Below the pieces are notes generated by a model that ran no database searches, had not been told where the DNA came from, and saw only the letters and a list, made by a program, of their open reading frames with translations. A stretch of DNA of 64,000 nucleotides from positions 32,001 through 96,000 of the IMG/VR virus record IMGVR_UViG_3300022555_000024; one strand, given 5' to 3'. Of the stretch, positions 13,990 to 32,271 are shown piece after piece (within the stretch, counting starts at the first letter, position 1; every line of letters begins with the position of its first letter). The translations under genes and the position numbers were made by a program. This DNA is from a virus.

Positions 13990-15462
13990 ATGGGTTTCTT
14001 TTATACAAATTCACAATATCATAGAGGTTCTATTTATGTTCGTGGTTACGACACAAATGGAAAATATGTTTCTAAAAAAGTTGATTACCAGCCAACAATA
14101 TTTGTACCTACAAATAAAATAGAAGAATCAGATGGTTGGAGAACTATTTACGGAGATCCAGTAAAGCCCGTAAAAATGCGTTCTGTATTTGATATGAAAG
14201 AATATGTGAATGGATTAGATAATATTTGTGGACTTATAGATACTCGTGATCAAAAATATGCATTTATCAACGACATCATCCCTGGTGAAGTTGAACATAA
14301 AATGGATCTCATAAAGACTTTAATATTTGATATAGAAATAGAAACAGAAGGTGGTCATGAGGATATTAAAAAATTAGTTTGGGGAAATCCTCATCAGAAA
14401 ATAAATGCAATCTGTGTGTGGATAAATAATATAGAATATGTTTCTTGGGGACTCGGTAAGTTTGAAGCAGAAAGAGAAGATCATGAATATAGAGAATTTA
14501 CCGATGAATTAGAAATGTTGCATGACTTTTTTAAGTTTGTTCAACACGAAAAACCGGATATCATATCGGGATGGAATATTAATGGATTTGATATTCCATA
14601 TTTATTCAATAGAGTTTCATTTTTAGGTAAAAGAGAATATGCAAATTTAATGTCTCCTTGGAGACATGCACCAGAATTAGTAGGAAATGAAATTCAACAG
14701 TATACTATTCCAGGAATTGCTATTTTAGATTATATGGAGACATATAAGAAATTTAATATGACGCCTAGAGAATCATATTCTCTTAATAATATTTGTTATG
14801 AAGAACTTGGAGAGAAAAAACTAGACTATTCCGAATTCGATTCTCTCATGGACCTTTATAAAAAAGATTGGAAAACTTTTATTAGATACAATTTACGTGA
14901 TACAGAATTGGTTAAAAAACTAGATGATAAACTTAAATATTTTGATTTAGTAGTTACATATGCATACCTCGGAAAAGTAAATTACGAGGATGTATTTGGC
15001 ACTGTGAAATATTGGGATATTAAGATATATAATCATCTTTACAAAAAGAAAATAGCAATTCCACCAAAACCTAAAGATACAAGAAAAGAAGAATATCCAG
15101 GTGGTTTTGTAAAAGATCCAATCGTAGGTATGCATAAATGGGTATCAACGTTTGATTTGAATTCGCTATATCCATCTGTACTTATTCAGTGGAACATTTC
15201 TCCAGAAACTTTAATTAATGGAAAACATTCTCAGGTTACTGTAGATTCTATATTAAATAAAGAGTATGATAATTCAGAATTGCTTAAAGAAGATATTACT
15301 TTAGCAGCAAACGGGGTATATTTTTCTAAGAAAAAACAAGGGTTTATTCCAGAAATTCTAGAAGAACTTTACGAGACTAGAACAAAATATAAAAAGAAGA
15401 TGCTTGCAGGTGAAGCTAAATTGCAGAAAGTACTAGAAGAAATAAAAAGAAGAAAATTATAA
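13990..15462 (+). CDS. gp43A: family B DNA polymerase, N-terminal part (exonuclease and part of palm)
   Basis: FDIEIE, GWNINGFDIPY, YNLRD and FDLNSLYPS motifs; ends in the fingers region. Confidence 0.92.
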   Translation: MGFFYTNSQYHRGSIYVRGYDTNGKYVSKKVDYQPTIFVPTNKIEESDGWRTIYGDPVKPVKMRSVFDMKEYVNGLDNICGLIDTRDQKYAFINDIIPGEVEHKMDLIKTLIFDIEIETEGGHEDIKKLVWGNPHQKINAICVWINNIEYVSWGLGKFEAEREDHEYREFTDELEMLHDFFKFVQHEKPDIISGWNINGFDIPYLFNRVSFLGKREYANLMSPWRHAPELVGNEIQQYTIPGIAILDYMETYKKFNMTPRESYSLNNICYEELGEKKLDYSEFDSLMDLYKKDWKTFIRYNLRDTELVKKLDDKLKYFDLVVTYAYLGKVNYEDVFGTVKYWDIKIYNHLYKKKIAIPPKPKDTRKEEYPGGFVKDPIVGMHKWVSTFDLNSLYPSVLIQWNISPETLINGKHSQVTVDSILNKEYDNSELLKEDITLAANGVYFSKKKQGFIPEILEELYETRTKYKKKMLAGEAKLQKVLEEIKRRKL

Positions 15463-16559
15463 TGAAAGCAATAGAGGAGATGAGTGATGAGGAACTTATT
15501 TCATATAAAAAGAATTTGGAAGATGAAATAGGAGCTAATAATTCTACTCAAAATGCGTTAAAGGTAGCTTTGAATATGTTATACGGAGCCCTAGCTAATA
15601 GATATTTTAGGTATTTTGATGTAAGAATGGCTTCTGCAGTAACTTTAACAGGTCAGAGTGTTGTTAAATGGTGCGAAAAGTCTACCAATGAATATATGAA
15701 TAAGGTTTTAAAGACAGATAAAGACTATATTATTGCCATTGATACTGATTCAGTGTTTATAACAATGGAGGATATGATTAATAAATATTTTCCAGATGTA
15801 AATGATACTTCTACTGTTATATCAACAATGCAAAAAATAACAGAAAAGAAAATACTTCCTAATATGGCAAAATCATTTGCCGAGCTTTATGAATATTTGA
15901 ATTGTTATAAACCAAGAATGGTTATCAAATCAGAATCTTTGGCAAGTGCAGGTATATTTTTATGTAGAAAGAAATATGCTCTTATGGTTCATTCTAACGA
16001 AGGAATTGTTTATGCAAAACCAAAAATGAAAGTTAAAGGAATAGAGATAATAAGATCATCTACTCCCGAAATATGTAGATCTTCTCTTAAAGAAGCCGTT
16101 CAAATAATATTTGATTCTGGTGAAAAAGCTGTTCAAGAACATATTAAACAATTTAAGAATAAATTTATATCTAGCGGAGTTAATTCTACATCTTTTCCTA
16201 GAGGAATTAACGAACTTAAAAAATGGATAGATATAAATGGAAATCTTAACAAAGGATGCCCAATACATGTAAGAGGAGCTTTAAACTTCAATAGATATGT
16301 AGATAAATTAGGATTAGATAAGAAGTATGAGCATATTCATGAAGGCGATAAAATAAGATTTACATATCTTAAGATGCCTAATCCTTTAAATTCAAATGTA
16401 ATAGGGTTTGTTTCTTTAATGCCAAAAGAATTTGAGTTAGAGGAGTATATAGATTATGAATTGCAGTTTCAAAAGGCGTTTGTTGCACCTATTTCTAATA
16501 TTCTTGATGCAGTAGGATGGCAAGTAAAACCAAGTGTGAATTTGATAGATTTATTTTAA
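15462..16559 (+). CDS. gp43B: family B DNA polymerase, C-terminal part
   Basis: KVALNMLYG, IDTDS, KKYAL and KGIEIIRSSTP; TAATG overlap with gp43A. Confidence 0.92.
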   Translation: MKAIEEMSDEELISYKKNLEDEIGANNSTQNALKVALNMLYGALANRYFRYFDVRMASAVTLTGQSVVKWCEKSTNEYMNKVLKTDKDYIIAIDTDSVFITMEDMINKYFPDVNDTSTVISTMQKITEKKILPNMAKSFAELYEYLNCYKPRMVIKSESLASAGIFLCRKKYALMVHSNEGIVYAKPKMKVKGIEIIRSSTPEICRSSLKEAVQIIFDSGEKAVQEHIKQFKNKFISSGVNSTSFPRGINELKKWIDINGNLNKGCPIHVRGALNFNRYVDKLGLDKKYEHIHEGDKIRFTYLKMPNPLNSNVIGFVSLMPKEFELEEYIDYELQFQKAFVAPISNILDAVGWQVKPSVNLIDLF

Positions 16560-21549: not shown

Positions 21550-21590
21550 AATGGCCCTGGTGAATTCACCAGGGCCATTGTTGTTTATTA
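21550..21590 (+). terminator. perfect 30-bp palindrome, probable terminator
   Basis: aatggccctggtgaattcaccagggccatt is its own reverse complement; followed by gttgtttatt. Confidence 0.7.
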
Positions 21591-21636: not shown

Positions 21637-21644
21637 TATAAATA
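21637..21644 (+). promoter_or_regulatory. T4-type late promoter
   Basis: TATAAATA 13 nt upstream of ATG 21657. Other copies at 8745, 11743, 13184, 20191, 52446 and on the minus strand at 30880-30887. Confidence 0.75.
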
Positions 21645-21656
21645 TTCTTATGATAA

Positions 21657-22049
21657 ATGACAATCGAATTATTAAACGAAGATAATTTTGAACCATATGC
21701 TATGCGAAATTATCGAAATGACTTTTGTTTTGATTTAACAGAATTTCACGATGATCTTAGAAGTATACGGTACATTAAAATTTTAATTAATCGCTACAAA
21801 AATACAGGATCTTTACAAGAAAGATTAATCTTGAATCATCTTATAACTATGAGTAACGTGTTTACTGTTGATGCTGTGGTAAAAATGTTATTTTATAAAT
21901 TAGATGAAATGGATTATCCTATTCTAAAATCATTTCTATCGTACCTTAATTATATGCCTGATATAATATATGGCATTAGAGGTCATAATATATGGAGTTC
22001 AGAAATTAAAGAAGATACATTAATTACACAAAGACTAAAACAATTATGA
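21657..22049 (+). CDS. conserved T4-like phage late protein
   Basis: LNEDNF..YAM..Y and ERLILNHLI motifs; late promoter. Confidence 0.7.
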   Translation: MTIELLNEDNFEPYAMRNYRNDFCFDLTEFHDDLRSIRYIKILINRYKNTGSLQERLILNHLITMSNVFTVDAVVKMLFYKLDEMDYPILKSFLSYLNYMPDIIYGIRGHNIWSSEIKEDTLITQRLKQL

Positions 22050-23197
22050 CAATAAATTTCAAAAATGTCTGGGAAACTATAGACAAAAAGGCATCTGAAC
22101 CTTTACAAGAACTTTTTATAAGACCAGATGGAGATTTGGAACAGGGAGCAGCAGAAGTTGCATCAGATATAGCAGTTCTTTTTGTAAGAACAATAAGTCC
22201 TTACATCTCTAATTTAATGACGAAGAGAAGAGTTAAAAGAGAAGAAATACAGAAAGCTCATACAATATTAACAGGAGCAGAGGAACAAATAGCTACCATT
22301 ATAAACAAAAGTGTTCAAGATAGATATCAACATCAGTGCGATGTGTGGGAAACTGAACTAGAAAAACTCGAAAGAAATTTAAAAGAAAGTAAAGATGTAG
22401 ATACCCTTATTGGTAATATTACAGAATCTTTAAAAAAGGGATCTGAATATAGAACATTCTTTAAGAATGCGCTAAAAAAATTCGGTGTTGAATCACAAGA
22501 TGAATTAACAGGAGATAAAAAGAAAAAATTCTTTGATTATGTTGATTCTAATTGGGAATCTGATGACGAAATCGAAGAATCGATTTCAGAGGAATCGTTA
22601 GATGAATTATTTATGACTCCCGAAAACAAGAAAGAAGAATTAGTTGCAGATGCTGCTATATTTTTAGTTAGAGTTGTTGGACCATATATTAGTAAATTGA
22701 TTAAAGAATTTAATGAAAGACGTTGTGTTGAAAAGAAAGAATTGATTACTGCTACTAGATATCTTAATAAAGCAGAACATGAAATAGAACTGATTAAAGA
22801 ACCCGCTACACAACTCGTTTTTAAGAAAATTCTATCTAAATGGTGGTCTCAAATCAAAAAATTCAAAAATTGTGGAATTAACGAAGAATCTGGCACAGCA
22901 TCTAAAGAATTTGTTGACTCAGAGGTCGAAGGACTTACAGGCGGTGCAAAAAAGGCATACGATATGGGCTTAAACCATGGTATGAATAATAGAAAACCAT
23001 TAGATAGTCCTGACGCTTCATTTGGTAGATTTGGCGATCACTATACGTATGGTTATAATGTTGGTAAGAATCATAGAAAAATAGATTCTGATGGTGTAGA
23101 ATGGCACAATAAGCAGAAAGGTAGAGTAAACTCATCTTATAGACCACTTCAACATGAGAGTGTTGATATTATAAAATCAAAGAAGAATTCTAACTAA
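22046..23197 (+). CDS. putative head internal polyprotein with internal duplication
   Basis: Duplicated L.ELF...F.VR...PYIS.L domain, FFKNALKKFGV...KKKFFDYVD module, and multiple (I/L)xE sites. Confidence 0.55.
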   Translation: MTINFKNVWETIDKKASEPLQELFIRPDGDLEQGAAEVASDIAVLFVRTISPYISNLMTKRRVKREEIQKAHTILTGAEEQIATIINKSVQDRYQHQCDVWETELEKLERNLKESKDVDTLIGNITESLKKGSEYRTFFKNALKKFGVESQDELTGDKKKKFFDYVDSNWESDDEIEESISEESLDELFMTPENKKEELVADAAIFLVRVVGPYISKLIKEFNERRCVEKKELITATRYLNKAEHEIELIKEPATQLVFKKILSKWWSQIKKFKNCGINEESGTASKEFVDSEVEGLTGGAKKAYDMGLNHGMNNRKPLDSPDASFGRFGDHYTYGYNVGKNHRKIDSDGVEWHNKQKGRVNSSYRPLQHESVDIIKSKKNSN

Positions 23198-24033
23198 TGA
23201 CTCAGTTTTTATTTGAAGGGAAATACTGGGATTTGCTATATGCATATCAATTTATTAAACGTCTTGTTATTCCATTTGATAAAACAGACGCATTTAAACT
23301 TGGTATTATAGATAAATATGGCAATAATTTAATTCCTAGAAAAGATTTCACAACAGATGAGCAAAAAAATGCATATACCTATTTTACAGTGATGGTATTT
23401 AACTTAAAGAAACTTTTAGGTAAACTTCCTGCGGGCAAAACGATGATGGCTTCTTTAATTGCAGCATTGCTTTTACTTAAAGAGGAAAAGAATAGAACTT
23501 TTCATATAGAACAAGAAAATGATGAAAAACTTCTTATAGAAAAATATAAACAAATATACGATAAAGTTCATTCATCTAATACAAATTTCATACCAATATT
23601 AACAGAGATTCATTGTCTCATTAAAGAAGATAAAATGATAAATGAAGAAGTAACTGGAGATCTGCCTACGTTACAAATACCAACTTCAACTGTTGGTGCA
23701 TTAAGAAGAAAACAGAAAAAGGATGCTATGATTAGAAGAGCTCCAGTTGTTTATGCAATACCAGAAGGCAATGGAGTCGAATCACATGGTGATTTTAAAG
23801 TTTTCACTGTTGATACCCCAACATTTATAGAAGCAAAGTCTGCAAAGAATAGATATAACAAATATGATAAATATGTAGGAAGAGCTGAGTTGGGAGAACA
23901 AATTAGATCATATGCAATTAGTAACCCAAACATGCCAGTTATCTTGAAGTGTGAGACTACAGGTCAAATATGTTTTTTAAAATATGGTAAAGTATCATTA
24001 GATTCTATAACAGAATTTAAAAATAAAAAATGA
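23197..24033 (+). CDS. conserved T4-like phage protein (late cluster upstream of primase)
   Basis: YQFIKRLVIPFDKTDAFKLGIID motif. Confidence 0.65.
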   Translation: MTQFLFEGKYWDLLYAYQFIKRLVIPFDKTDAFKLGIIDKYGNNLIPRKDFTTDEQKNAYTYFTVMVFNLKKLLGKLPAGKTMMASLIAALLLLKEEKNRTFHIEQENDEKLLIEKYKQIYDKVHSSNTNFIPILTEIHCLIKEDKMINEEVTGDLPTLQIPTSTVGALRRKQKKDAMIRRAPVVYAIPEGNGVESHGDFKVFTVDTPTFIEAKSAKNRYNKYDKYVGRAELGEQIRSYAISNPNMPVILKCETTGQICFLKYGKVSLDSITEFKNKK

Positions 24034-25166
24034 AATCATTTAAGACATACATAACAGAGAAGAAGGACCACCTGATAGATAAGCTAGCGATTACCGATCA
24101 CCAAAAGAAGGAACTTAAGGATTTTTTTGCAAAGAAACCAAACCTAGAGAACAAGATTGACTGGCAAAAGAAGGGTCTTGCCTTTAAGGATTTTGCGGAT
24201 GTCATGGCCACGACGAAGACCGAAAGAACCAGGATGGTAAAGAAGCAGGGCATCGCCGGGCTCAAAGATGGCAAGGATTATCTTGAACTAAAGGTACCTG
24301 CAGATTTTCCATTCCAGGCCTACATCCCACTTACCTGGGAAGCTAGCAAACTAATCGCATCAAACAAGATAGGTAAAGGTACTGCCAAGTGGTGCACTGC
24401 CCATCATAGCTTATATAAACATTGGTATGAATATGCAGATAATCTAGATGTTCTCATTTATCTCATAGGAAAAGATACCAAAATAGCAATGGTACTAGAT
24501 GGTAATTATATAGATGATGTTTATGATATAGAAGACAATACTATTGAGATTGAAGCCGAATATCGTATTCTAGTGGATATCAACAAATCTTTAATAAATA
24601 AAGCCAGAGGTATTATAGAGAAAGGTTTAAAGGACAGAGTTTGGGATGGAGGCACGTGGCTAGGCGGCACTTGGACTGGTAGATTATGGAAAGGCGGAAA
24701 CTGGAAAGATGGCAACTGGAAAGATGGAACATGGGAAGCCGGCAGTTGGGACCATGGAACATGGGAAGGTGGAATTTGGGAAGGCGGACTTTGGAGAAAC
24801 GGCACCTGGGAAAAGGGTATTTGGCAAAACGGAATTTGGAAAGATGGCAACTGGAAAGGCGGCACTTGGAAAAACGGTGTCTGGGAAGGCGGAACCTGGC
24901 AATACGGGCTTTGGCGAAATGGCATCTGGAAAGGAGGTGATTGGTGGGACGGCACTTGGTGGAACGGCACTTGGGAAGCAGGCACCTGGCAAGGCGGTAC
25001 TTGGCAAGCAGGCACCTGGCAAGGCGGTACCTGGGAAGCCGGCCTCTGGGAACGCGGAGATTGGTTGGGTGGAACTTGGAAAGGCGGAGATTGGTGGGGT
25101 GGTTATGATATAAATGGCAATTATCATGAAATGGGTGATTCACCAGATAAATGGAAACTAAAATGA
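24030..25166 (+). CDS. capsid-targeted protein: WCT domain plus 31 W-x-x-G-x repeats
   Basis: N-terminal MKSFKTYITE, AKWCTA, pentapeptide repeats and a GDSPDKW cap. Confidence 0.8.
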   Translation: MKSFKTYITEKKDHLIDKLAITDHQKKELKDFFAKKPNLENKIDWQKKGLAFKDFADVMATTKTERTRMVKKQGIAGLKDGKDYLELKVPADFPFQAYIPLTWEASKLIASNKIGKGTAKWCTAHHSLYKHWYEYADNLDVLIYLIGKDTKIAMVLDGNYIDDVYDIEDNTIEIEAEYRILVDINKSLINKARGIIEKGLKDRVWDGGTWLGGTWTGRLWKGGNWKDGNWKDGTWEAGSWDHGTWEGGIWEGGLWRNGTWEKGIWQNGIWKDGNWKGGTWKNGVWEGGTWQYGLWRNGIWKGGDWWDGTWWNGTWEAGTWQGGTWQAGTWQGGTWEAGLWERGDWLGGTWKGGDWWGGYDINGNYHEMGDSPDKWKLK

Positions 25167-25735
25167 AATCATTCAAGACATTTATAATAGAATCAAAAAT
25201 AAGAAAAAGTTACTTCGATTCATCCATTCCAGTTGTCATTCTTTATAAAACAGACGAGGAATATAACATTTGGGAACCGCGTTTTAAGAAATATGGATGG
25301 GCAATAGGTATCCTAGATAAGAAAATTATTATAGAAGATGGCGAGATTATAAAAAATTTAACAAAAACACAAATCTTATTTGTAGAATCTCATGAATGTT
25401 CTCATTTTATACTTGGGGAAAAAGCTACAGAAGTAGAATGTGATTGGCTTGCTATAGCAAATCTTTGGAAAAAAGGATTTAAAAACGCAGCAAAATTAGG
25501 AATAGACACCTTTGAGGAAAGAAATAATGTACTATTTGATACTTCAGATCTTCCGGGTTATGATTCTTGGATAAAAAGAAATAAACATTTGGGCGAATGC
25601 TTTATTTTAGAATGCAAAGAAAAAAATATAGAGATATTAAAAGCTTTAAAGAATTCACAAAAATTTAATATTTACCCATCAAAAAGCACTTTAGAAAGTG
25701 CTTGGGAAATATACACAGAATCTATTATACATTAA
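25163..25735 (+). CDS. capsid-targeted putative zinc metallopeptidase
   Basis: MKSFKTFIIE; HECSH followed by EVECD. Confidence 0.65.
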   Translation: MKSFKTFIIESKIRKSYFDSSIPVVILYKTDEEYNIWEPRFKKYGWAIGILDKKIIIEDGEIIKNLTKTQILFVESHECSHFILGEKATEVECDWLAIANLWKKGFKNAAKLGIDTFEERNNVLFDTSDLPGYDSWIKRNKHLGECFILECKEKNIEILKALKNSQKFNIYPSKSTLESAWEIYTESIIH

Positions 25736-25770
25736 AATTTTAAATTTATAATACTTTAATTATATTAAAA

Positions 25771-26661
25771 ATGAAAACGTATAAACATTTATTAGAAGAA
25801 ATATCAATGTTTGAAAATAATGGTGAAGGTGGTGGAACTTGGAAAGATGGTATTTGGAGAGGTGGCACTTGGTTAGGCGGCACCTGGAAATACGGAATTT
25901 GGAAAGATGGAATTTGGAAAGACGGAATTTGGAAAGACGGAATTTGGAAAGATGGAACATGGAAACGCGGAGTATGGAGTGGCGGTACTTGGAAAGATGG
26001 AACTTGGATTAGTGGCACTTGGAAAGGCGGAAATTGGTGGGACGGTACTTGGAAAGGTGGCATCTGGGAAAATGGTACTTGGAATAAAGGAACTTGGATT
26101 AGTGGCACTTGGAAAGGTGGAACATGGTTTGACGGTATCTGGAACGGCGGAACATGGGAAAAGGGTATTTGGAAAGGTGGAACATTGGAACGCGGTGATT
26201 GGTGGGACGGTACTTGGCAAGGTGGTACTTGGAAAGATGGCACTTGGAAAGGCGGAACCTGGCAATACGGGCTTTGGCGAAATGGCAAATGGAATGGTGG
26301 CAAATGGAATGGTGGAACCTGGGAAGGCGGAACCTGGGAAGGCGGTACCTGGGAAGGCGGAACCTGGGAAAAGGGTATTTGGAAAGGTGGAACATGGGAA
26401 CGCGGTGATTGGTGGGACGGTACTTGGCAAGGTGGCACTTGGAAAGGCGGCATCTGGAAAGGTGGAACATGGGAACGCGGTGATTGGTGGGACGGTATCT
26501 GGAAAGGCGGCACTTGGGAACGCGGCATCTGGAAAGGAGGTGATTGGTGGGACGGTACTTGGGAAGGCGGAGATTGGTGGGGTGGTTATGATAAATACGG
26601 CCGTTATCATGCAGCAGGCGATTCACCGGATAAATGGAAACTAAAAAACAAACTAAAATGA
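25771..26661 (+). CDS. capsid-targeted protein consisting almost entirely of ~50 W-x-x-G-x repeats
   Basis: MKTYKHLLEE, repeats, then GGYD...GDSPDKW. Confidence 0.8.
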   Translation: MKTYKHLLEEISMFENNGEGGGTWKDGIWRGGTWLGGTWKYGIWKDGIWKDGIWKDGIWKDGTWKRGVWSGGTWKDGTWISGTWKGGNWWDGTWKGGIWENGTWNKGTWISGTWKGGTWFDGIWNGGTWEKGIWKGGTLERGDWWDGTWQGGTWKDGTWKGGTWQYGLWRNGKWNGGKWNGGTWEGGTWEGGTWEGGTWEKGIWKGGTWERGDWWDGTWQGGTWKGGIWKGGTWERGDWWDGIWKGGTWERGIWKGGDWWDGTWEGGDWWGGYDKYGRYHAAGDSPDKWKLKNKLK

Positions 26662-26936
26662 AAACGTATAAAGAATTTCGTACAGAAATAGGGTCTAAAA
26701 CTTGGGACGATATTGCTGAAAATCCTAAATTAGTAGGACATATTCCTAGTAATATAAATAAAGAAATTTTAGATGATCCTAAAGATAGAAAATATTTGAA
26801 GTCTATTGGAAAAGCAAGGTTAAAGAAAGCAGAAGATCAATGGAAAAAGATTATAGATGATCCAGAAGAAGTAGGTAGTATTCCAAGTAACTATCCTGGG
26901 AAATTTAAAGGTGGTAATTTTGCAAACACAATTTGA
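26658..26936 (+). CDS. small capsid-targeted protein
   Basis: MKTYKEFRTE; internal duplication W..I..(N/D)P..VG.IPSN. Confidence 0.65.
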   Translation: MKTYKEFRTEIGSKTWDDIAENPKLVGHIPSNINKEILDDPKDRKYLKSIGKARLKKAEDQWKKIIDDPEEVGSIPSNYPGKFKGGNFANTI

Positions 26937-28057
26937 TGAAATCATTCAAGACATACATAACGGAGAAGAAGGACCATCTTATAGATAAGCTAGCGATTAC
27001 CGATCACCAGAAGAAGGAATTGAAGTCGTTTTTTGCAAAGAAGCCAAACCTAGAGAACAAGATTGACTGGCAAAAGAAGGGCCTGGCATTTGCCGATTTT
27101 GCAGATGTCATGGCCACGACGAAGACCGAAAGAACTAGGATGGTAAAGAAGCAGGGTATTGCCGGGCTCAAAGATGGCAAGGATTATCTTGAATTGAAGT
27201 CACCTGCAGATTTTCCATTCCATGCCTACATCCCACTTACCTGGGAAGCTAGCAAACTAATCGCATCAAACAAGATAGGTAACGGAACAGCCAAGTGGTG
27301 CACAGCACACCACAGCTTATATAAACATTGGTATGAATATGCCGAGAATTTTCGTGTTCTCATTTATCTCATAGGAAAAGATACCAAAATAGCAATGGTA
27401 CTAGATGGTAATTATATAGATGATGTTTATGATATAGAAGACAATATCACCACGGTTAAACCAGAATACCATACCCTAGTGGATATCAACAAATCTTTAA
27501 TAAATAAAGCCAGGGGTATTATAGAGAAAGGTTTAAAGGACAGAGTTTGGGATGGAGGCACGTGGCTAGGCGGCACTTGGACTGGTAGATTATGGAAAGA
27601 TGGAACATGGTATCGCGGAACCTGGGAAGCCGGAATTTGGAAAGATGGAATTTGGAAAGACGGAATTTGGAAAGACGGAATTTGGAAAGATGGAACATGG
27701 GAAGCCGGCCTCTGGGAACGCGGAGATTGGTTGGGTGGAACTTGGAAAGGCGGAGTCTGGGAAGATGGTGTTTGGGCCAGAGGTAGATGGGAAAGTGGTA
27801 TTTGGCGAGGCGGCACTTGGGAAGACGGTCATTGGTATAGTGGCACTTGGATTAGTGGCACTTGGTTGGACGGCACTTGGGACGGCGGAACCTGGCGAAA
27901 TGGCAACTGGAAAGGAGGTGATTGGTGGGACGGCACTTGGGAACGCGGTACCTGGAGAGGTGGCACTTGGTTAGGCGGCACCTGGTATGGTGGTTATGAC
28001 ATAGATGGCAATTATCATGTAGCGGGCGATTCACCAGATAAATGGAAACTAAAATGA
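26936..28057 (+). CDS. paralog of 24030-25166 with 30 W-x-x-G-x repeats
   Basis: Near-identical N-terminal ~200 aa; different repeat order. Confidence 0.8.
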   Translation: MKSFKTYITEKKDHLIDKLAITDHQKKELKSFFAKKPNLENKIDWQKKGLAFADFADVMATTKTERTRMVKKQGIAGLKDGKDYLELKSPADFPFHAYIPLTWEASKLIASNKIGNGTAKWCTAHHSLYKHWYEYAENFRVLIYLIGKDTKIAMVLDGNYIDDVYDIEDNITTVKPEYHTLVDINKSLINKARGIIEKGLKDRVWDGGTWLGGTWTGRLWKDGTWYRGTWEAGIWKDGIWKDGIWKDGIWKDGTWEAGLWERGDWLGGTWKGGVWEDGVWARGRWESGIWRGGTWEDGHWYSGTWISGTWLDGTWDGGTWRNGNWKGGDWWDGTWERGTWRGGTWLGGTWYGGYDIDGNYHVAGDSPDKWKLK

Positions 28058-28742
28058 AATCATTCAAGACGTGCATAACGGAGAAGAAGGATCACCTGAT
28101 AGATAAATTGAAAATGACTGATTTTGAAAAAGCACAATTAAAAGACTTTTTCAAAAGGAAACCAAACCTAGAAAACAAGATTGACTGGCAAAAGAAAGAT
28201 CTGGCCTTTAAGGATTTTGCGGATGTCATGTCCACAACGAAGACCGAAAGAACCAGGGCAGTCAGGAAGTCTGGCATCACAGGTCTCAAGAAAGGCATAG
28301 ACTATCTAGAGGTCAAAACTCCAGCAGATTCGCCGTTCCAGGCCTACATCCCACTTACCTGGAAGCTAGCAAACTAATTGCATCCAACAAGATAGGACCC
28401 TGTACAGGTGAATGGTGCATATCTCATCATAGTGAAAACAATGATTGGAATGTATATACAAAAGAAGGAGATGTATTTATTATGCTTATAGGACAAAGAA
28501 CAAAATTAGCAATAAAAATAAATAAAAAAGATGTATTTCATGTCTGGGATAGTGATGATAATCACTTAATTAAACATAATAGAGTTTGGGACTCAAACAT
28601 ATTTGGTGATAGTGCTGGTCATCATTTAGATATAGATAAATTAATATCGGATAATAAGAATATTATAGATAATGCAAGAAAAATTGTAACACCTCAGATT
28701 AGAACAACTCCGATAAGAATTACACCTTATTTTGAGATATAA
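28054..28742 (+). pseudogene. third WC(T/I)-domain paralog lacking repeats; frameshift near 28361
   Basis: ctggaagct versus ctgggaagct in the paralogs. The alternative frame continues ASKLIASNKIG..WCISHH into ORF 28482-28742. Confidence 0.75.
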
Positions 28743-29031
28743 CGAAGATAGTACTATCAATGAAGTAGATTATCCACGTGCAATAGAAGAATGTATAGAT
28801 CTCGGCTTGGGTTGGAGATTACCTACATATGATGAACTTAATAAATTGCGTTTGATATATCAAAATACCGATATTGTTGATAATTTTGATTTGCATCCAT
28901 ATGGTTTGTATTGGTCTTCGTCTTATGATAATAAAAGACAATCTGTTAGATGTATTATAATGCGGGGTGTAGTTGAATGGTCTAATATAACAATGGGTTT
29001 AGCTAGAGTAAGAGCAGTAAGAAGTGTCTAA
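28732..29031 (+). CDS. DUF1566/Lcl-like protein
   Basis: GWRLPTYDEL, YWSSS and VRAVR. Confidence 0.7.
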   Translation: MRYNEDSTINEVDYPRAIEECIDLGLGWRLPTYDELNKLRLIYQNTDIVDNFDLHPYGLYWSSSYDNKRQSVRCIIMRGVVEWSNITMGLARVRAVRSV

Positions 29032-31313: not shown

Positions 31314-32271
31314 GTTATCAAAAAATGAAGTCAATGCAACAGCAAGAGGCGGTTCTGAGTTACAAGCAGAGTATTTACAAAAATATGTTGCAAAAGAACT
31401 TCTAGATCAATTTCAAATAATAATAACAAGAGTTAGAGAACTCGAAGACAAACCACGTTTACTCTGGTGTAAGGAAGTTGTTTCTGAACCAGAATCTCAG
31501 AGGTTAAAAGAACCTGCATTCCGTGATAATTTTAGATATATCATACACAATTCTGATTATCAGAGAAATCAGTTTAGAGATTATCTTGGAGTTCCATTTG
31601 AAAAATCACACGTCTTGAAAAATGCAATAGAACCATCGAATATAGACATTTCTAAAAAATTTTTTCCAGAGAAGGTAAAACTTATTTATTCTTCTACTCC
31701 ACAAAGGGGCCTTAATATTTTATATTCTGTTTTTGACGAGCTTTATAAGGATGACAAAAACATAGAACTAAATGTGTATTCTTCTTTTGATATCTATGGT
31801 CATCATGAAAGAAATAAACCATTTTTGCCACTGTTTGATCAATGTAAATCTCATCCAGGGATAAATTATTATGGTTCAGTTTCTCATGAAGAATTGAAAG
31901 ATGCTACAAAAGAAAATCACATTTTAGCATACCCTTCAATCTGGGAAGAAAGTAGTTGCACTACTATCATGGAAAACATGAGTGCAGGAAATCTTATAGT
32001 GACTAATAACTTAGGAGCATTGCCCGAAACCAGTGCAGGTTTCTCCTTAATGTATGATTATCAATCTAACCTTAATCTACACGCACAGAATTTCTATAAT
32101 ACGTTAAAAGAAGGTATTGACAGTATAAGGGGCAACGGGATAGGAAAAAAAATAAATGGAATGAGTATTACTAGCCTTTTAGAAGAACAAAAAAAATACG
32201 CAGACATTTTCTATAATTGGGAATTCAGAGGGCAACAATGGACAGAATTCTTAACTAAATTGTTAAAATGA
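31306..32271 (+). CDS. GT-B glycosyltransferase (GT1/GT4-like)
   Basis: GGSE, YSSTPQRGL, YPSIWEESSC...ENMSAG and GALPET. Confidence 0.85.
   Translation: MNKLSKNEVNATARGGSELQAEYLQKYVAKELLDQFQIIITRVRELEDKPRLLWCKEVVSEPESQRLKEPAFRDNFRYIIHNSDYQRNQFRDYLGVPFEKSHVLKNAIEPSNIDISKKFFPEKVKLIYSSTPQRGLNILYSVFDELYKDDKNIELNVYSSFDIYGHHERNKPFLPLFDQCKSHPGINYYGSVSHEELKDATKENHILAYPSIWEESSCTTIMENMSAGNLIVTNNLGALPETSAGFSLMYDYQSNLNLHAQNFYNTLKEGIDSIRGNGIGKKINGMSITSLLEEQKKYADIFYNWEFRGQQWTEFLTKLLK

Follow-up and report, generated by a model that had tools for sequence, protein, structure and literature searches.

A gene array with putative T4-type capsid-targeting leaders and predicted tryptophan-core β-solenoids in a T4-related phage

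The window analysed here is a stretch of 64,000 nucleotides from an uncultured relative of T4 (positions 32,001 to 96,000 of the IMG/VR virus record IMGVR_UViG_3300022555_000024), in which six consecutive + strand open reading frames between positions 24030 and 28742 start with MK(S/T)(F/Y)K...E and three of them carry strict tryptophan pentapeptide repeats (Table 1). This leader-bearing array, first noticed in a first-pass annotation of the sequence, is confirmed. We lean towards the view that the array represents internal head proteins of the T4 type, expanded in number and evolving fast, in which a leader is joined to exchangeable cargo, and that the repeat proteins are probably delivered into the host with the phage DNA. 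The T4 internal proteins are the classic example of proteins injected together with phage DNA to disarm the host and, to our knowledge, the diversity of such proteins outside the T-even phages has hardly been charted.

Table 1 Features of the array and of the region upstream of it (window positions)
Feature	Position	Strand	Length	Content
Terminator-like hairpin	21553..21576	+		G+C stem of 10 bp, AATT loop, then a T-rich run; closes the preceding unit
Late-promoter box	21637..21644	+		TATAAATA, consensus of T4 late promoters, lying 20 nt ahead of 21657, the first gene of the packed cluster running into the array
Gene 1	24030..25166	+	378 aa	Leader MKSFKTYITE, N-domain, 31 units, cap
Gene 1, leader	24030..24059	+
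Gene 1, N-domain	about 24060..24635	+		Conserved, 'KKDH...KWC'
Gene 1, repeats	24636..25100	+		31 G-x-W-x-x units
Gene 1, cap	25101..25163	+		GYD..GDSPDKWKLK
Gene 2	25163..25735	+	190 aa	Leader MKSFKTFIIE; the remainder is an unrelated domain carrying a HECSH (HExxH) motif
Gene 3	25771..26661	+	296 aa	Leader MKTYKHLLEE, short linker, 50 units, cap ending KWKLKNKLK
Gene 3, repeats	25834..26583	+		50 G-x-W-x-x units
Gene 4	26658..26936	+	92 aa	Small basic protein (pI 9.1) behind the leader MKTYKEFRTE
Gene 5	26936..28057	+	373 aa	Gene 1 paralogue with identical leader (MKSFKTYITE), 30 units, cap
Gene 5, repeats	27542..27991	+		30 units
Gene 6	28054..28742	+		Leader MKSFKTCITE and KWC N-domain, without repeats; split ORFs 28054..28377 (107 aa) and 28482..28742

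The genes were described as mostly translationally coupled, and so they are: four of the starts (24030, 25163, 26658 and 28054) lie in ATGA overlaps and that of gene 5 in a TGATG, while a 35-nt spacer before gene 3 makes the sole non-overlapping junction of the six. The MK start is more economical than an upstream METKMK... start, because METKMK arises from the K-W codons of the preceding cap and is absent where no cap precedes. The N-domain of gene 5 is 92% identical to that of gene 1, and gene 6 is a further N-domain paralogue, disrupted by a 1-nt deletion (one G lost from a GGG run near 28360; copy spacing 1118 vs 1117). The pairing of genes 3 and 4, i.e., a repeat gene ending in NKLK followed by a MKTYKEFR start, is seen again in the head module. 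The gene 2 product is a candidate small metallopeptidase cargo; its match to Peptidase_M48 in Pfam is weak and sub-threshold (E 0.032), and PHROG, NCBIfam and PDB sequences yielded no match. A megablast search with 12 kb against 50,697 phage records likewise gave no match.

The resemblance of the N-termini to the T4 capsid-targeting sequence is borne out by the T4 record, which gives MKTYQEFIAE for ipII and ipIII and MKTFKEFTST for ipI. The window leaders retain M1, K2, an aromatic residue at position 4, an aromatic residue or Leu at 7, I/L at 8 and E10, and thus have the makings of a leader of about ten residues of the MKTYQEFIAE type (hydrophobic or aromatic at 4 and 7, I/L at 8, Glu at 10). 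One of the six (MKTYKEFRTE) has Arg at position 8, which counts against an internal-head-protein reading. Mutational work on IPIII links positions 4 and 7 to targeting and positions 8 and 10 to processing (PMC9026906). Glu10 is invariant among 30 homologues (29-94% identity), and residues 1-9 are modelled as disordered by AF2 (pLDDT <50). Leaders of one type precede quite unrelated cargoes, among them the KWC domain, the HExxH and repeat-only proteins and the 92-aa product, with further examples outside the window; neighbouring genes in other phages have common, lineage-specific leaders ending in L/I-x-E. At the level of sequence, the capsid-targeting reading of these leaders appears well supported. 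A footprint of gp21 exposure, sought as depletion of [LI]-x-E in the mature regions, was not found (38 observed vs 28.5 expected; controls 74 vs 63), which counts against the internal-head-protein reading as well.

The same starts could be explained at the DNA level, as a recombination and translational-coupling cassette in front of host-takeover or accessory proteins that act in the cytoplasm and do not enter the capsid. A junction, ...GATAAATGGAAACTAAAATGAAATCATT..., does recur at several gene boundaries, and both repeat arrays and pairs of genes bear clear marks of duplication and shuffling. However, the leader is retained despite differing upstream DNA (24030, 25771, 26936), it persists at the protein level in distant phages and in T4, and Glu10 is invariant even in homologues with only 29-50% identity, so we regard such a cassette as an unlikely account of the array.

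The machinery that an internal head protein would need is encoded on the same contig, where both a gp21-type prohead protease (Peptidase_S77, PF03420, E 3.7e-36; E 3.3e-38 in a separate search) and a gp22-type scaffold core protein (T4 scaffold family PF25623, E 5.4e-62) are present. Between gp21 and gp22 lie one repeat gene (contig positions C1:20075-20731) and several leader-bearing genes; the repeat protein of this head module is without a MK-type leader, which again counts against the internal-head-protein reading. A second array is located outside the window, at the right contig end (C1:107708-112339), with a hairpin upstream of it equivalent to that in Table 1, and the contig as a whole (112 kb) harbors six repeat proteins and at least 14 leader-bearing ORFs. 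Copies of the late-promoter box TATAAATA stand upstream of gp21 (12 nt from its ORF), of gp22 (62 nt) and of the opening gene of the second array (43 nt); such boxes are not enriched in the AT-rich window (21 found vs 17 expected), a further point against the internal-head-protein reading.

The repeats themselves were counted at 31, 50 and 30 units in genes 1, 3 and 5, in agreement with the annotation (31, about 50 and 30), the tract of gene 3 being composed of 23 units, one unit in which Leu replaces Trp, and 26 further units. Within the unit G-x-W-x-x, Gly occupies position 0 in 28-29 of the 30-31 units and Trp occupies position 2 in all units of the three proteins except one, with a consensus of G-[TIV]-W-x-[GDN] and a period of strictly 5. 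All three proteins end in the shared cap that had been claimed for them, GGYD..G.YH..GDSPDKWK, and such regularity of repeat and cap cannot be due to chance. Scans of all array proteins against Pfam, PHROGs and NCBIfam placed neither the repeat proteins nor the N-domain nor the 92-aa protein in a family, and a PDB sequence search with the repeat-only protein of gene 3 gave no meaningful match.

A β-helix, for which AlphaFold models had been suggested as a check, is indeed predicted by AF2: the gene 1 model (overall pLDDT 85) has a β-solenoid with pLDDT 93-98 in the repeats and a DSSP period of 15 residues. The repeats are thus predicted to form a right-handed, three-sided β-solenoid, each turn of which takes up three pentapeptides (15 residues). 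Neither the full model nor the N-domain model had a Foldseek match in the PDB at E<=1e-3; VIA-align placed the gene 1 model nearest to Ag43b (7kob_A, Z 15.6, rmsd 2.8 Å over 171 residues) and TibA (4q1q_B, Z 14.3, rmsd 2.8 Å over 174 residues), with lower scores, for the model only, against structures with four repeats per turn (Np275/276 Z 10.9, EfsQnr Z 10.0, AlbG Z 9.7). Composition does not differ between the faces (unit index modulo 3), and no face has a Thr- or charge-ladder; as the three faces are compositionally alike, the sequence itself fixes neither three nor four repeats per turn.

These results bear on the annotation's suggestion that the solenoids are co-injected, MfpA/Qnr-like anti-defence decoys plausibly protecting hypermodified DNA, here taken as DNA mimics or decoys that would block type IV restriction or other nucleases attacking sugar-modified hmC DNA. 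Known DNA mimics are strongly acidic, and the repeat regions here have a net charge of only -4 to 0 over 110-220 residues (whole-protein pI 6.7-8.9), as judged by composition, with no face of distinct charge pattern. Because the repeat regions are near neutral, mimicry is unsupported, even though the proteins are pentapeptide repeats with a predicted rod-like β-helix and T4 IPI* inhibits GmrSD (PMC3012670). The likeness to MfpA and Qnr fared no better, given that no Pfam pentapeptide match was found at E<=0.1, that the model has three and not four repeats per turn, and that Qnr-type structures score Z 9.7-10.9 vs Z 14-15.6 for generic three-sided helices, the model being closer to Ag43 and TibA. 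We consider DNA mimicry very unlikely.

The repeat family is much wider than this phage, comprising at E<=1e-10 the representatives of 1,034 clusters (50% identity), of which nearly all lack annotation, and it has neither a family name nor a solved structure. A complete phage of 140 kb possesses solenoid genes with neither a T4-type leader nor gp21, while an 87%-complete relative with a MKSYKELLIE leader has gp21. Since the family occurs leaderless in a complete phage lacking gp21, bearing a solenoid does not of itself mark a protein as 'injected'. The solenoid family is in fact often without a T4-type leader, and its giant members carry BNR, Laminin_G_3 and LysM domains, which are typical of surface and adhesion proteins and count against the internal-head-protein reading. 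Three sets of tblastn matches were discarded as possible shadow frames, those in Ralstonia phage Sarlave lying on the opposite strand to an annotated gene and those in Simangalove and Elie under no annotated gene. A string search of the literature for the repeat words and the cap found no paper, and a search by keyword for phage solenoids of Trp pentapeptides returned nothing relevant.

Such surface domains would suit external or structural virion parts, e.g., fibres, whiskers, decoration or adhesin stalks, in which the rod is a spacer and the shared N-terminus a family trait and no targeting signal. The best structural matches, adhesin stalks (Ag43, TibA, pertactin, Hap) and phage tailspikes, point the same way, a weak BFVD match (E 0.035) is to an annotated structural protein of phage PA5oct, and late-promoter boxes suit any virion protein. 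On the other hand, the leader is common to small unrelated proteins and matches the T4 capsid-targeting sequence position for position, the genes are distant from tail and fibre genes (they lie among replication genes or between gp21 and gp22), and no fibre, baseplate-attachment or trimerisation domain is seen. At least six hypervariable paralogues with interchangeable cargo would also be unusual for a structural part, and we hold this placement on the virion to be quite unlikely.

The N-domain modelled alone (pLDDT 87.5) had no structural neighbour (best Foldseek E 0.7, best VIA-align Z 4.7). BFVD matches to PcfJ-like proteins were weak (E 0.06-0.3) and had no counterpart in a Pfam PcfJ match, so they are a lead only. 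A Pfam scan of 105 homologues for fused N-domains returned just two weak Amidoligase_2 matches and one zinc ribbon; the 'YHRTS' N-domain may resemble an ADP-ribosyltransferase. Paralogues are 82-92% identical across the N-domain, 85-100% across the cap and 61-79% across the repeats, for which the unit-shuffled baseline is 54%. Given that the rod surface has diverged to near this baseline while N-domain and cap are conserved, we take the rod for a variable scaffold that would serve in binding or as a spacer.

For the array as a set of internal head proteins, we infer the following course. Its genes would be transcribed late, alongside the head genes, each protein starting with a capsid-targeting leader of ten residues (M-K-S/T-F/Y-K-x-aromatic/Leu-I/L-x-E) that would carry it into the gp22 scaffold core of the prohead, where the gp21 protease would cleave after Glu10. 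The mature proteins would remain among the packed DNA and exit via the tail at infection. In three array genes, and six in the contig, the C-terminus of the cargo is predicted to be a Trp-core β-solenoid with x-W-x strands and Gly-rich corners, Trp pointing inward and the variable positions 1, 3 and 4 outward; the conserved C-terminal cap would close a rod some 2 nm wide and 5-8 nm long. As infection begins, such a rod would present the conserved N-domain to host targets or aim it at them. T4 internal proteins counter host defences, IPI by inhibiting GmrSD, and IPIII is required to infect ECOR17 (PMC9391042; PMC3012670); an anti-defence role of the repeat proteins is our guess by analogy with IPI, and any link to the hmC-sugar DNA would likewise be one of analogy. 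Bolder still, and offered as a tentative postulate that may well not hold, the G-x-W-x-x repeat could be an undescribed class of β-solenoid, winding in turns of three pentapeptides about a stacked Trp core, used by phages as a fast-diversifying binding scaffold and here turned into an effector-fused repertoire, loaded by the leader and injected before gene expression against variable host defence proteins.

If so, the injected solenoids would amount to a pre-made, variable counter-defence arsenal. A marine-type relative of T4 would have a much larger and more modular repertoire behind a T4-type leader, and a lineage leader ending in L/I-x-E, in phages carrying gp21, could serve as a rule for finding candidate injected proteins in metagenomes. 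The structure of a Trp-core solenoid could add a new solenoid geometry, useful for protein design, and its partners, once identified, could reveal new counter-defence mechanisms.

Among known repeats, the pentapeptide-repeat proteins (PF00805 clan; MfpA, Qnr, AlbG, Np275/276) share with those of the window the tandem 5-residue units, a large hydrophobic centre with a small residue two positions earlier and, by prediction, a right-handed β-helix. They differ in consensus (A-(D/N)-L-x-x vs G-x-W-x-(G/D/N) here, with no HMM match), in having four units (20 residues) per turn vs three (15 residues) in our model, and in an acidic vs a near-neutral surface. The Ag43 and TibA autotransporter stalks (AIDA-type repeats) superpose best, both being right-handed three-sided β-helices, but the likeness is one of shape only: identity is 16-17%, they have no Trp core, the window proteins have no secretion context, and the coil of Ag43b is longer (~12 turns in 235 residues vs ~11.4 turns in 171 here). 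MORN repeats have G-x-W-x-x-G words as well, with a period of 23 residues. Pseudomonas phage PspYZU05 gp54 is a true relative of the window repeats (44% identity; rmsd 3.5 Å over 114 residues), and its 'phosphatidylinositol 4-phosphate 5-kinase-like' (MORN) label is a misnomer; the window repeats have no MORN Pfam match and a period of 5.

The closest system overall is that of T4 IPI, IPII and IPIII, which agrees in its 10-residue leader of the same pattern, with a Glu cleavage site (here putative), and in the accompanying gp22 scaffold and protease of the gp21 type. As in the ip loci of T4 and the T-even phages, unrelated cargoes stand behind one leader in variable loci with multicopy genes. 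The mature parts here do not resemble IPI-III in sequence (PHROG and Pfam gave no match); because the T4 internal proteins are mutually unrelated, such homology defines individual families and not the class. Unlike the T4 proteins of 8-20 kDa, those of the array are about 40 kDa, their cargo includes a repeat solenoid and a conserved N-domain, and at least 14 leader-bearing ORFs face the three ip genes of T4.

Each of the six consecutive genes of the array begins with a short leader, and at five of the six array junctions the upstream stop is overlapped (ATGA four times, TGATG once), the remaining junction being a 35-nt spacer. Three products, those of genes 1, 3 and 5, carry 31, 50 and 30 G-[T/I/V]-W-x-[G/D/N] units, with Trp in 110 of the 111 units, and share the end GGYD..G.YH..GDSPDKWK. 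The first-pass annotation, which had described six mostly coupled leader ORFs and three Trp-pentapeptide proteins with a shared cap, thus proved exact. Gene 6 holds a copy of the N-terminal domain alone and is split where a GGG run near 28360 is one G short (CCTGGGAA to CCTGGAA), representing either a true pseudogene or a homopolymer assembly error. Gene 2 encodes a leader-bearing 190-aa protein that contains HECSH, an HExxH motif, and matches Peptidase_M48 below threshold (E 0.032); it may be a capsid-delivered metallopeptidase. A 99-aa ORF immediately after the array matches the Lcl C-terminal (DUF1566-like) domain (E 9.4e-6) below cut-off (26.3 bits vs 34.9). An acidic, internally duplicated 383-aa protein (...DIAVLFVRTISPYISNLM... 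and ...DAAIFLVRVVGPYISKLI...) with a weak EAD9 match starts MTINFKNVWE, with Glu at position 10, and this start may be a further leader variant.

Coordinates of the leader genes, repeat proteins and neighboring features (plain coordinates are window positions; C1 is the whole contig, L003 and L004 are stretches of it, and L005 is a region of Pseudomonas phage PspYZU05)
Feature	Coordinates	Strand	N-terminus
Array, six genes	24030-28742	+	
Gene 1, repeat protein		+	MKSFKTYITE
Gene 2, HECSH protein	25163-25735	+	MKSFKTFIIE
Gene 3, repeat protein	25771-26661	+	MKTYKHLLEE
Gene 4	26658-26936	+	MKTYKEFRTE
Gene 5, repeat protein	26936-28057	+	MKSFKTYITE
Gene 6, broken		+	MKSFKTCITE
Single-G deletion in gene 6	28340-28365		
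99-aa ORF	28732-29031		
383-aa protein	22046-23197		MTINFKNVWE
gp43 DNA polymerase, two ORFs	13990-16559		
gp21 frame, 442 aa	C1:15928-17256 (L003:928-2256)		MKTFNEFRKE
KWKLKNKLK/MKTYKEFR pair, head module	L003:5075-7020		
KWKLKNKLK/MKTYKEFR pair, array	25771-26936 (starts 25771/26658)		
Second array, right contig end	C1:107708-112339 (L004:12708-17339)		
PspYZU05 gp54	L005:6773-7384		

The likeness of these N-termini to the T4 capsid-targeting sequence (CTS), proposed at first reading, was borne out by comparison with the T4 ip genes (NC_000866), where ipII and ipIII start MKTYQEFIAE and ipI starts MKTFKEFTST. The first ten residues of IPIII are enough for packaging, positions 4 and 7 serving targeting and 8 and 10 processing (review of Black's work, PMC9026906), and the window leaders keep M1, K2, F/Y4, F/Y/L7 and E10, as well as I/L8 in all but one, which has Arg there. 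One leader type precedes cargoes unrelated to each other, Glu10 and the following KKDH are invariant among 30 homologues (lowest identity 29%), and residues 1-9 are unstructured in the AlphaFold2 (AF2) model. Adjacent genes of related viral contigs have a common lineage-specific leader ending in L/I-x-E (MRxLIE, MKIRFSALLEE, MKSWIKYISE, MKSYKELLIE). Read as a cassette-type feature, the conserved start would mark accessory proteins that are not packaged, which we regard as unlikely. The gp21 gene is present in the one nearly complete relative with a leader of this type; it is absent from a phage with a complete genome of 139,904 bp, none of whose many solenoid genes opens with a leader of this kind. 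The T4 late-promoter box (TATAAATA) lies directly 5' of gp21, gp22 and the first gene of each array, immediately preceded at both arrays by a terminator-like hairpin; the box shows no overall enrichment across the window, and the mature protein parts, when tested for gp21-site avoidance, gave no signal. Based on the leader match, varied cargoes, invariant Glu10, disordered leader, gp21 co-occurrence and late-promoter boxes, we consider packaging via a T4-type CTS to be the best reading and a reasonably probable one; that the repeat proteins are instead external structural parts of the virion seems quite unlikely.

A whole-contig scan recovered at least 14 ORFs starting MK[ST][FY][KQR]. The second array comprises two more repeat proteins (44 and 31 units; 443 and 379 aa) and three other leader-bearing genes. 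Leaders seen in it are MISFKSFITE (353 aa), MKSFKTYMTE and MKYYKEFITE (paralogues of ~147 aa each) and, in a further gene truncated by the contig end, MKSFKTYITE. In the head module, the interval from the gp21 protease gene (PF03420, E 3.7e-36) to that of the gp22 scaffold (PF25623, E 5.4e-62) contains a number of small genes with leaders, a repeat protein of 218 aa (22 units and an array-type cap, without the MK leader) and a protein of 430 aa with the start MKTYKEFRE. One gene pair, a repeat gene ending ...KWKLKNKLK followed by a gene starting MKTYKEFR, occurs both here and in the first array; the DNA upstream of the two pairs is identical (AAACTAAAAAACAAACTAAA), and their downstream proteins have the leader alone in common. 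The gp21 protease domain occupies the end (residues 233-390) of an open frame of 442 aa, the N-terminal 228 residues of which begin with a leader-like sequence, and a second CTS-like start, MKLLTETFIAE, stands just ahead of the protease domain. T4 gp21 has an internal start, and the frame seen here is either a core-protein fusion or two nested products.

The repeat proteins have no match in Pfam, PHROG, NCBIfam or PDB sequences. The AF2 model, computed from an alignment of 30 homologues (pLDDT 85 overall, 93-98 over the repeats), has short x-W-x strands alternating with two-residue Gly corners at a DSSP period of 15 residues, which would place three pentapeptides in each turn. Foldseek against the PDB gave nothing at E<=1e-3, its weak matches being left-handed hexapeptide helices. 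In exhaustive VIA-align comparisons, right-handed three-sided helices ranked first (Ag43b, Z 15.6, rmsd 2.8 Å over 171 residues; TibA, Z 14.3, rmsd 2.8 Å over 174), whereas classical pentapeptide proteins had lower scores (Z 9.7-10.9); the left-handed helices superposed poorly (rmsd ~11 Å). The beta-helix anticipated by the first-pass annotation is a confidently modelled solenoid, and the model is closer to three-sided helices than to classical pentapeptide proteins. Judging from the repeat unit, the Trp side chains should point into the core, because positions 1 (Thr/Ile) and 3 (Lys/Glu) cannot both be buried; the three solenoid faces did not differ in composition, and no ladder face was seen. 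At a rise of 4.8 Å per turn, the 31, 50 and 30 units are estimated to form rods of ~5, 8 and 5 nm, slender enough that they should pass easily through the tail channel. That the Trp solenoids are DNA mimics, as had been suggested after MfpA/Qnr, is very unlikely, given how little charge the repeat regions carry (net -4 to 0; protein pI 6.7-8.9). Paralogues are 82-92% identical in the N-domain, 85-100% in the cap and 61-79% in the repeats, compared with 54% for unit-shuffled arrays; with repeat identity close to the shuffled level while N-domain and cap are kept, the rod surface emerges as the variable part.

Searching 1.84 billion cluster representatives with phmmer returned 2,256 proteins at E<=1e-3 (1,034 at E<=1e-10), and ESM Atlas neighbors were viral without exception. 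The repeat block mostly lies near the C-terminus, after varied N-domains for which Pfam names are almost absent; many members have an N-cap motif (H/P-W-L..A....A.V.I..G.V.W) not seen in the copies of the array phage, and in some of the giant members BNR, Laminin_G_3 or LysM domains accompany degenerate G-x-(W/F)-x-N repeats. The only clear relative in a cultured phage is PspYZU05 gp54 (204 aa, S-G-x-W-x variant), wrongly labelled in GenBank as 'phosphatidylinositol 4-phosphate 5-kinase 5-like protein' owing to its G-x-W-x-x-G words. Other phages fuse the conserved 'KKDH...KWC' N-domain of genes 1, 5 and 6 to C-terminal repeats of other kinds (DUF285, LRR-like, others); modelled alone (pLDDT 87.5), this domain has no structural neighbor. 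Four paralogous genes of IMGVR_UViG_3300037067_016608 have the leader M(K/N/E)IRFSALLEE, then a 'VVAYHRT' domain, and a common C-terminal tail (...ALK.WKGKY); the 'VVAYHRT'-type N-domain is joined to Trp solenoids in metagenome proteins P0049 and P0058. The general architecture, as read from sequence, is a leader, a conserved domain and an exchangeable repeat scaffold.

The 112,339-bp IMG/VR contig (62% complete by CheckV, G+C ~30%), of which the window covers bases 32001-96000, encodes a gp46-like nuclease, RNA ligases, clamp loader, UvsX, gp41, gp61 and a gp43 polymerase split into two ORFs (490 and 365 aa) that abut, as well as CobS/CobT-like genes, beta-glucosyltransferase, Pnk and NAMPT; this gene set, and a major capsid protein sharing ~50% identity with its counterparts in cyanomyoviruses and Pelagibacter phage HTVC008M, designate a T4-like phage. 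We postulate that the proteins would be expressed late, alongside the head genes, carried into the scaffold core by their leader on the model of T4, and cut by gp21 after Glu10; they would then stay amid the packed DNA, be ejected with it, and act early in the host cytoplasm. A counter-defence role is plausible for the repeat proteins, given their hypervariable rod surface and the T4 precedents, where IPI blocks GmrSD and infection of ECOR17 requires IPIII (PMC9391042, PMC3012670). The CTS principle itself is already known; no description of a much-enlarged CTS repertoire with Trp-core pentapeptide solenoids as cargo was found in the searchable literature.
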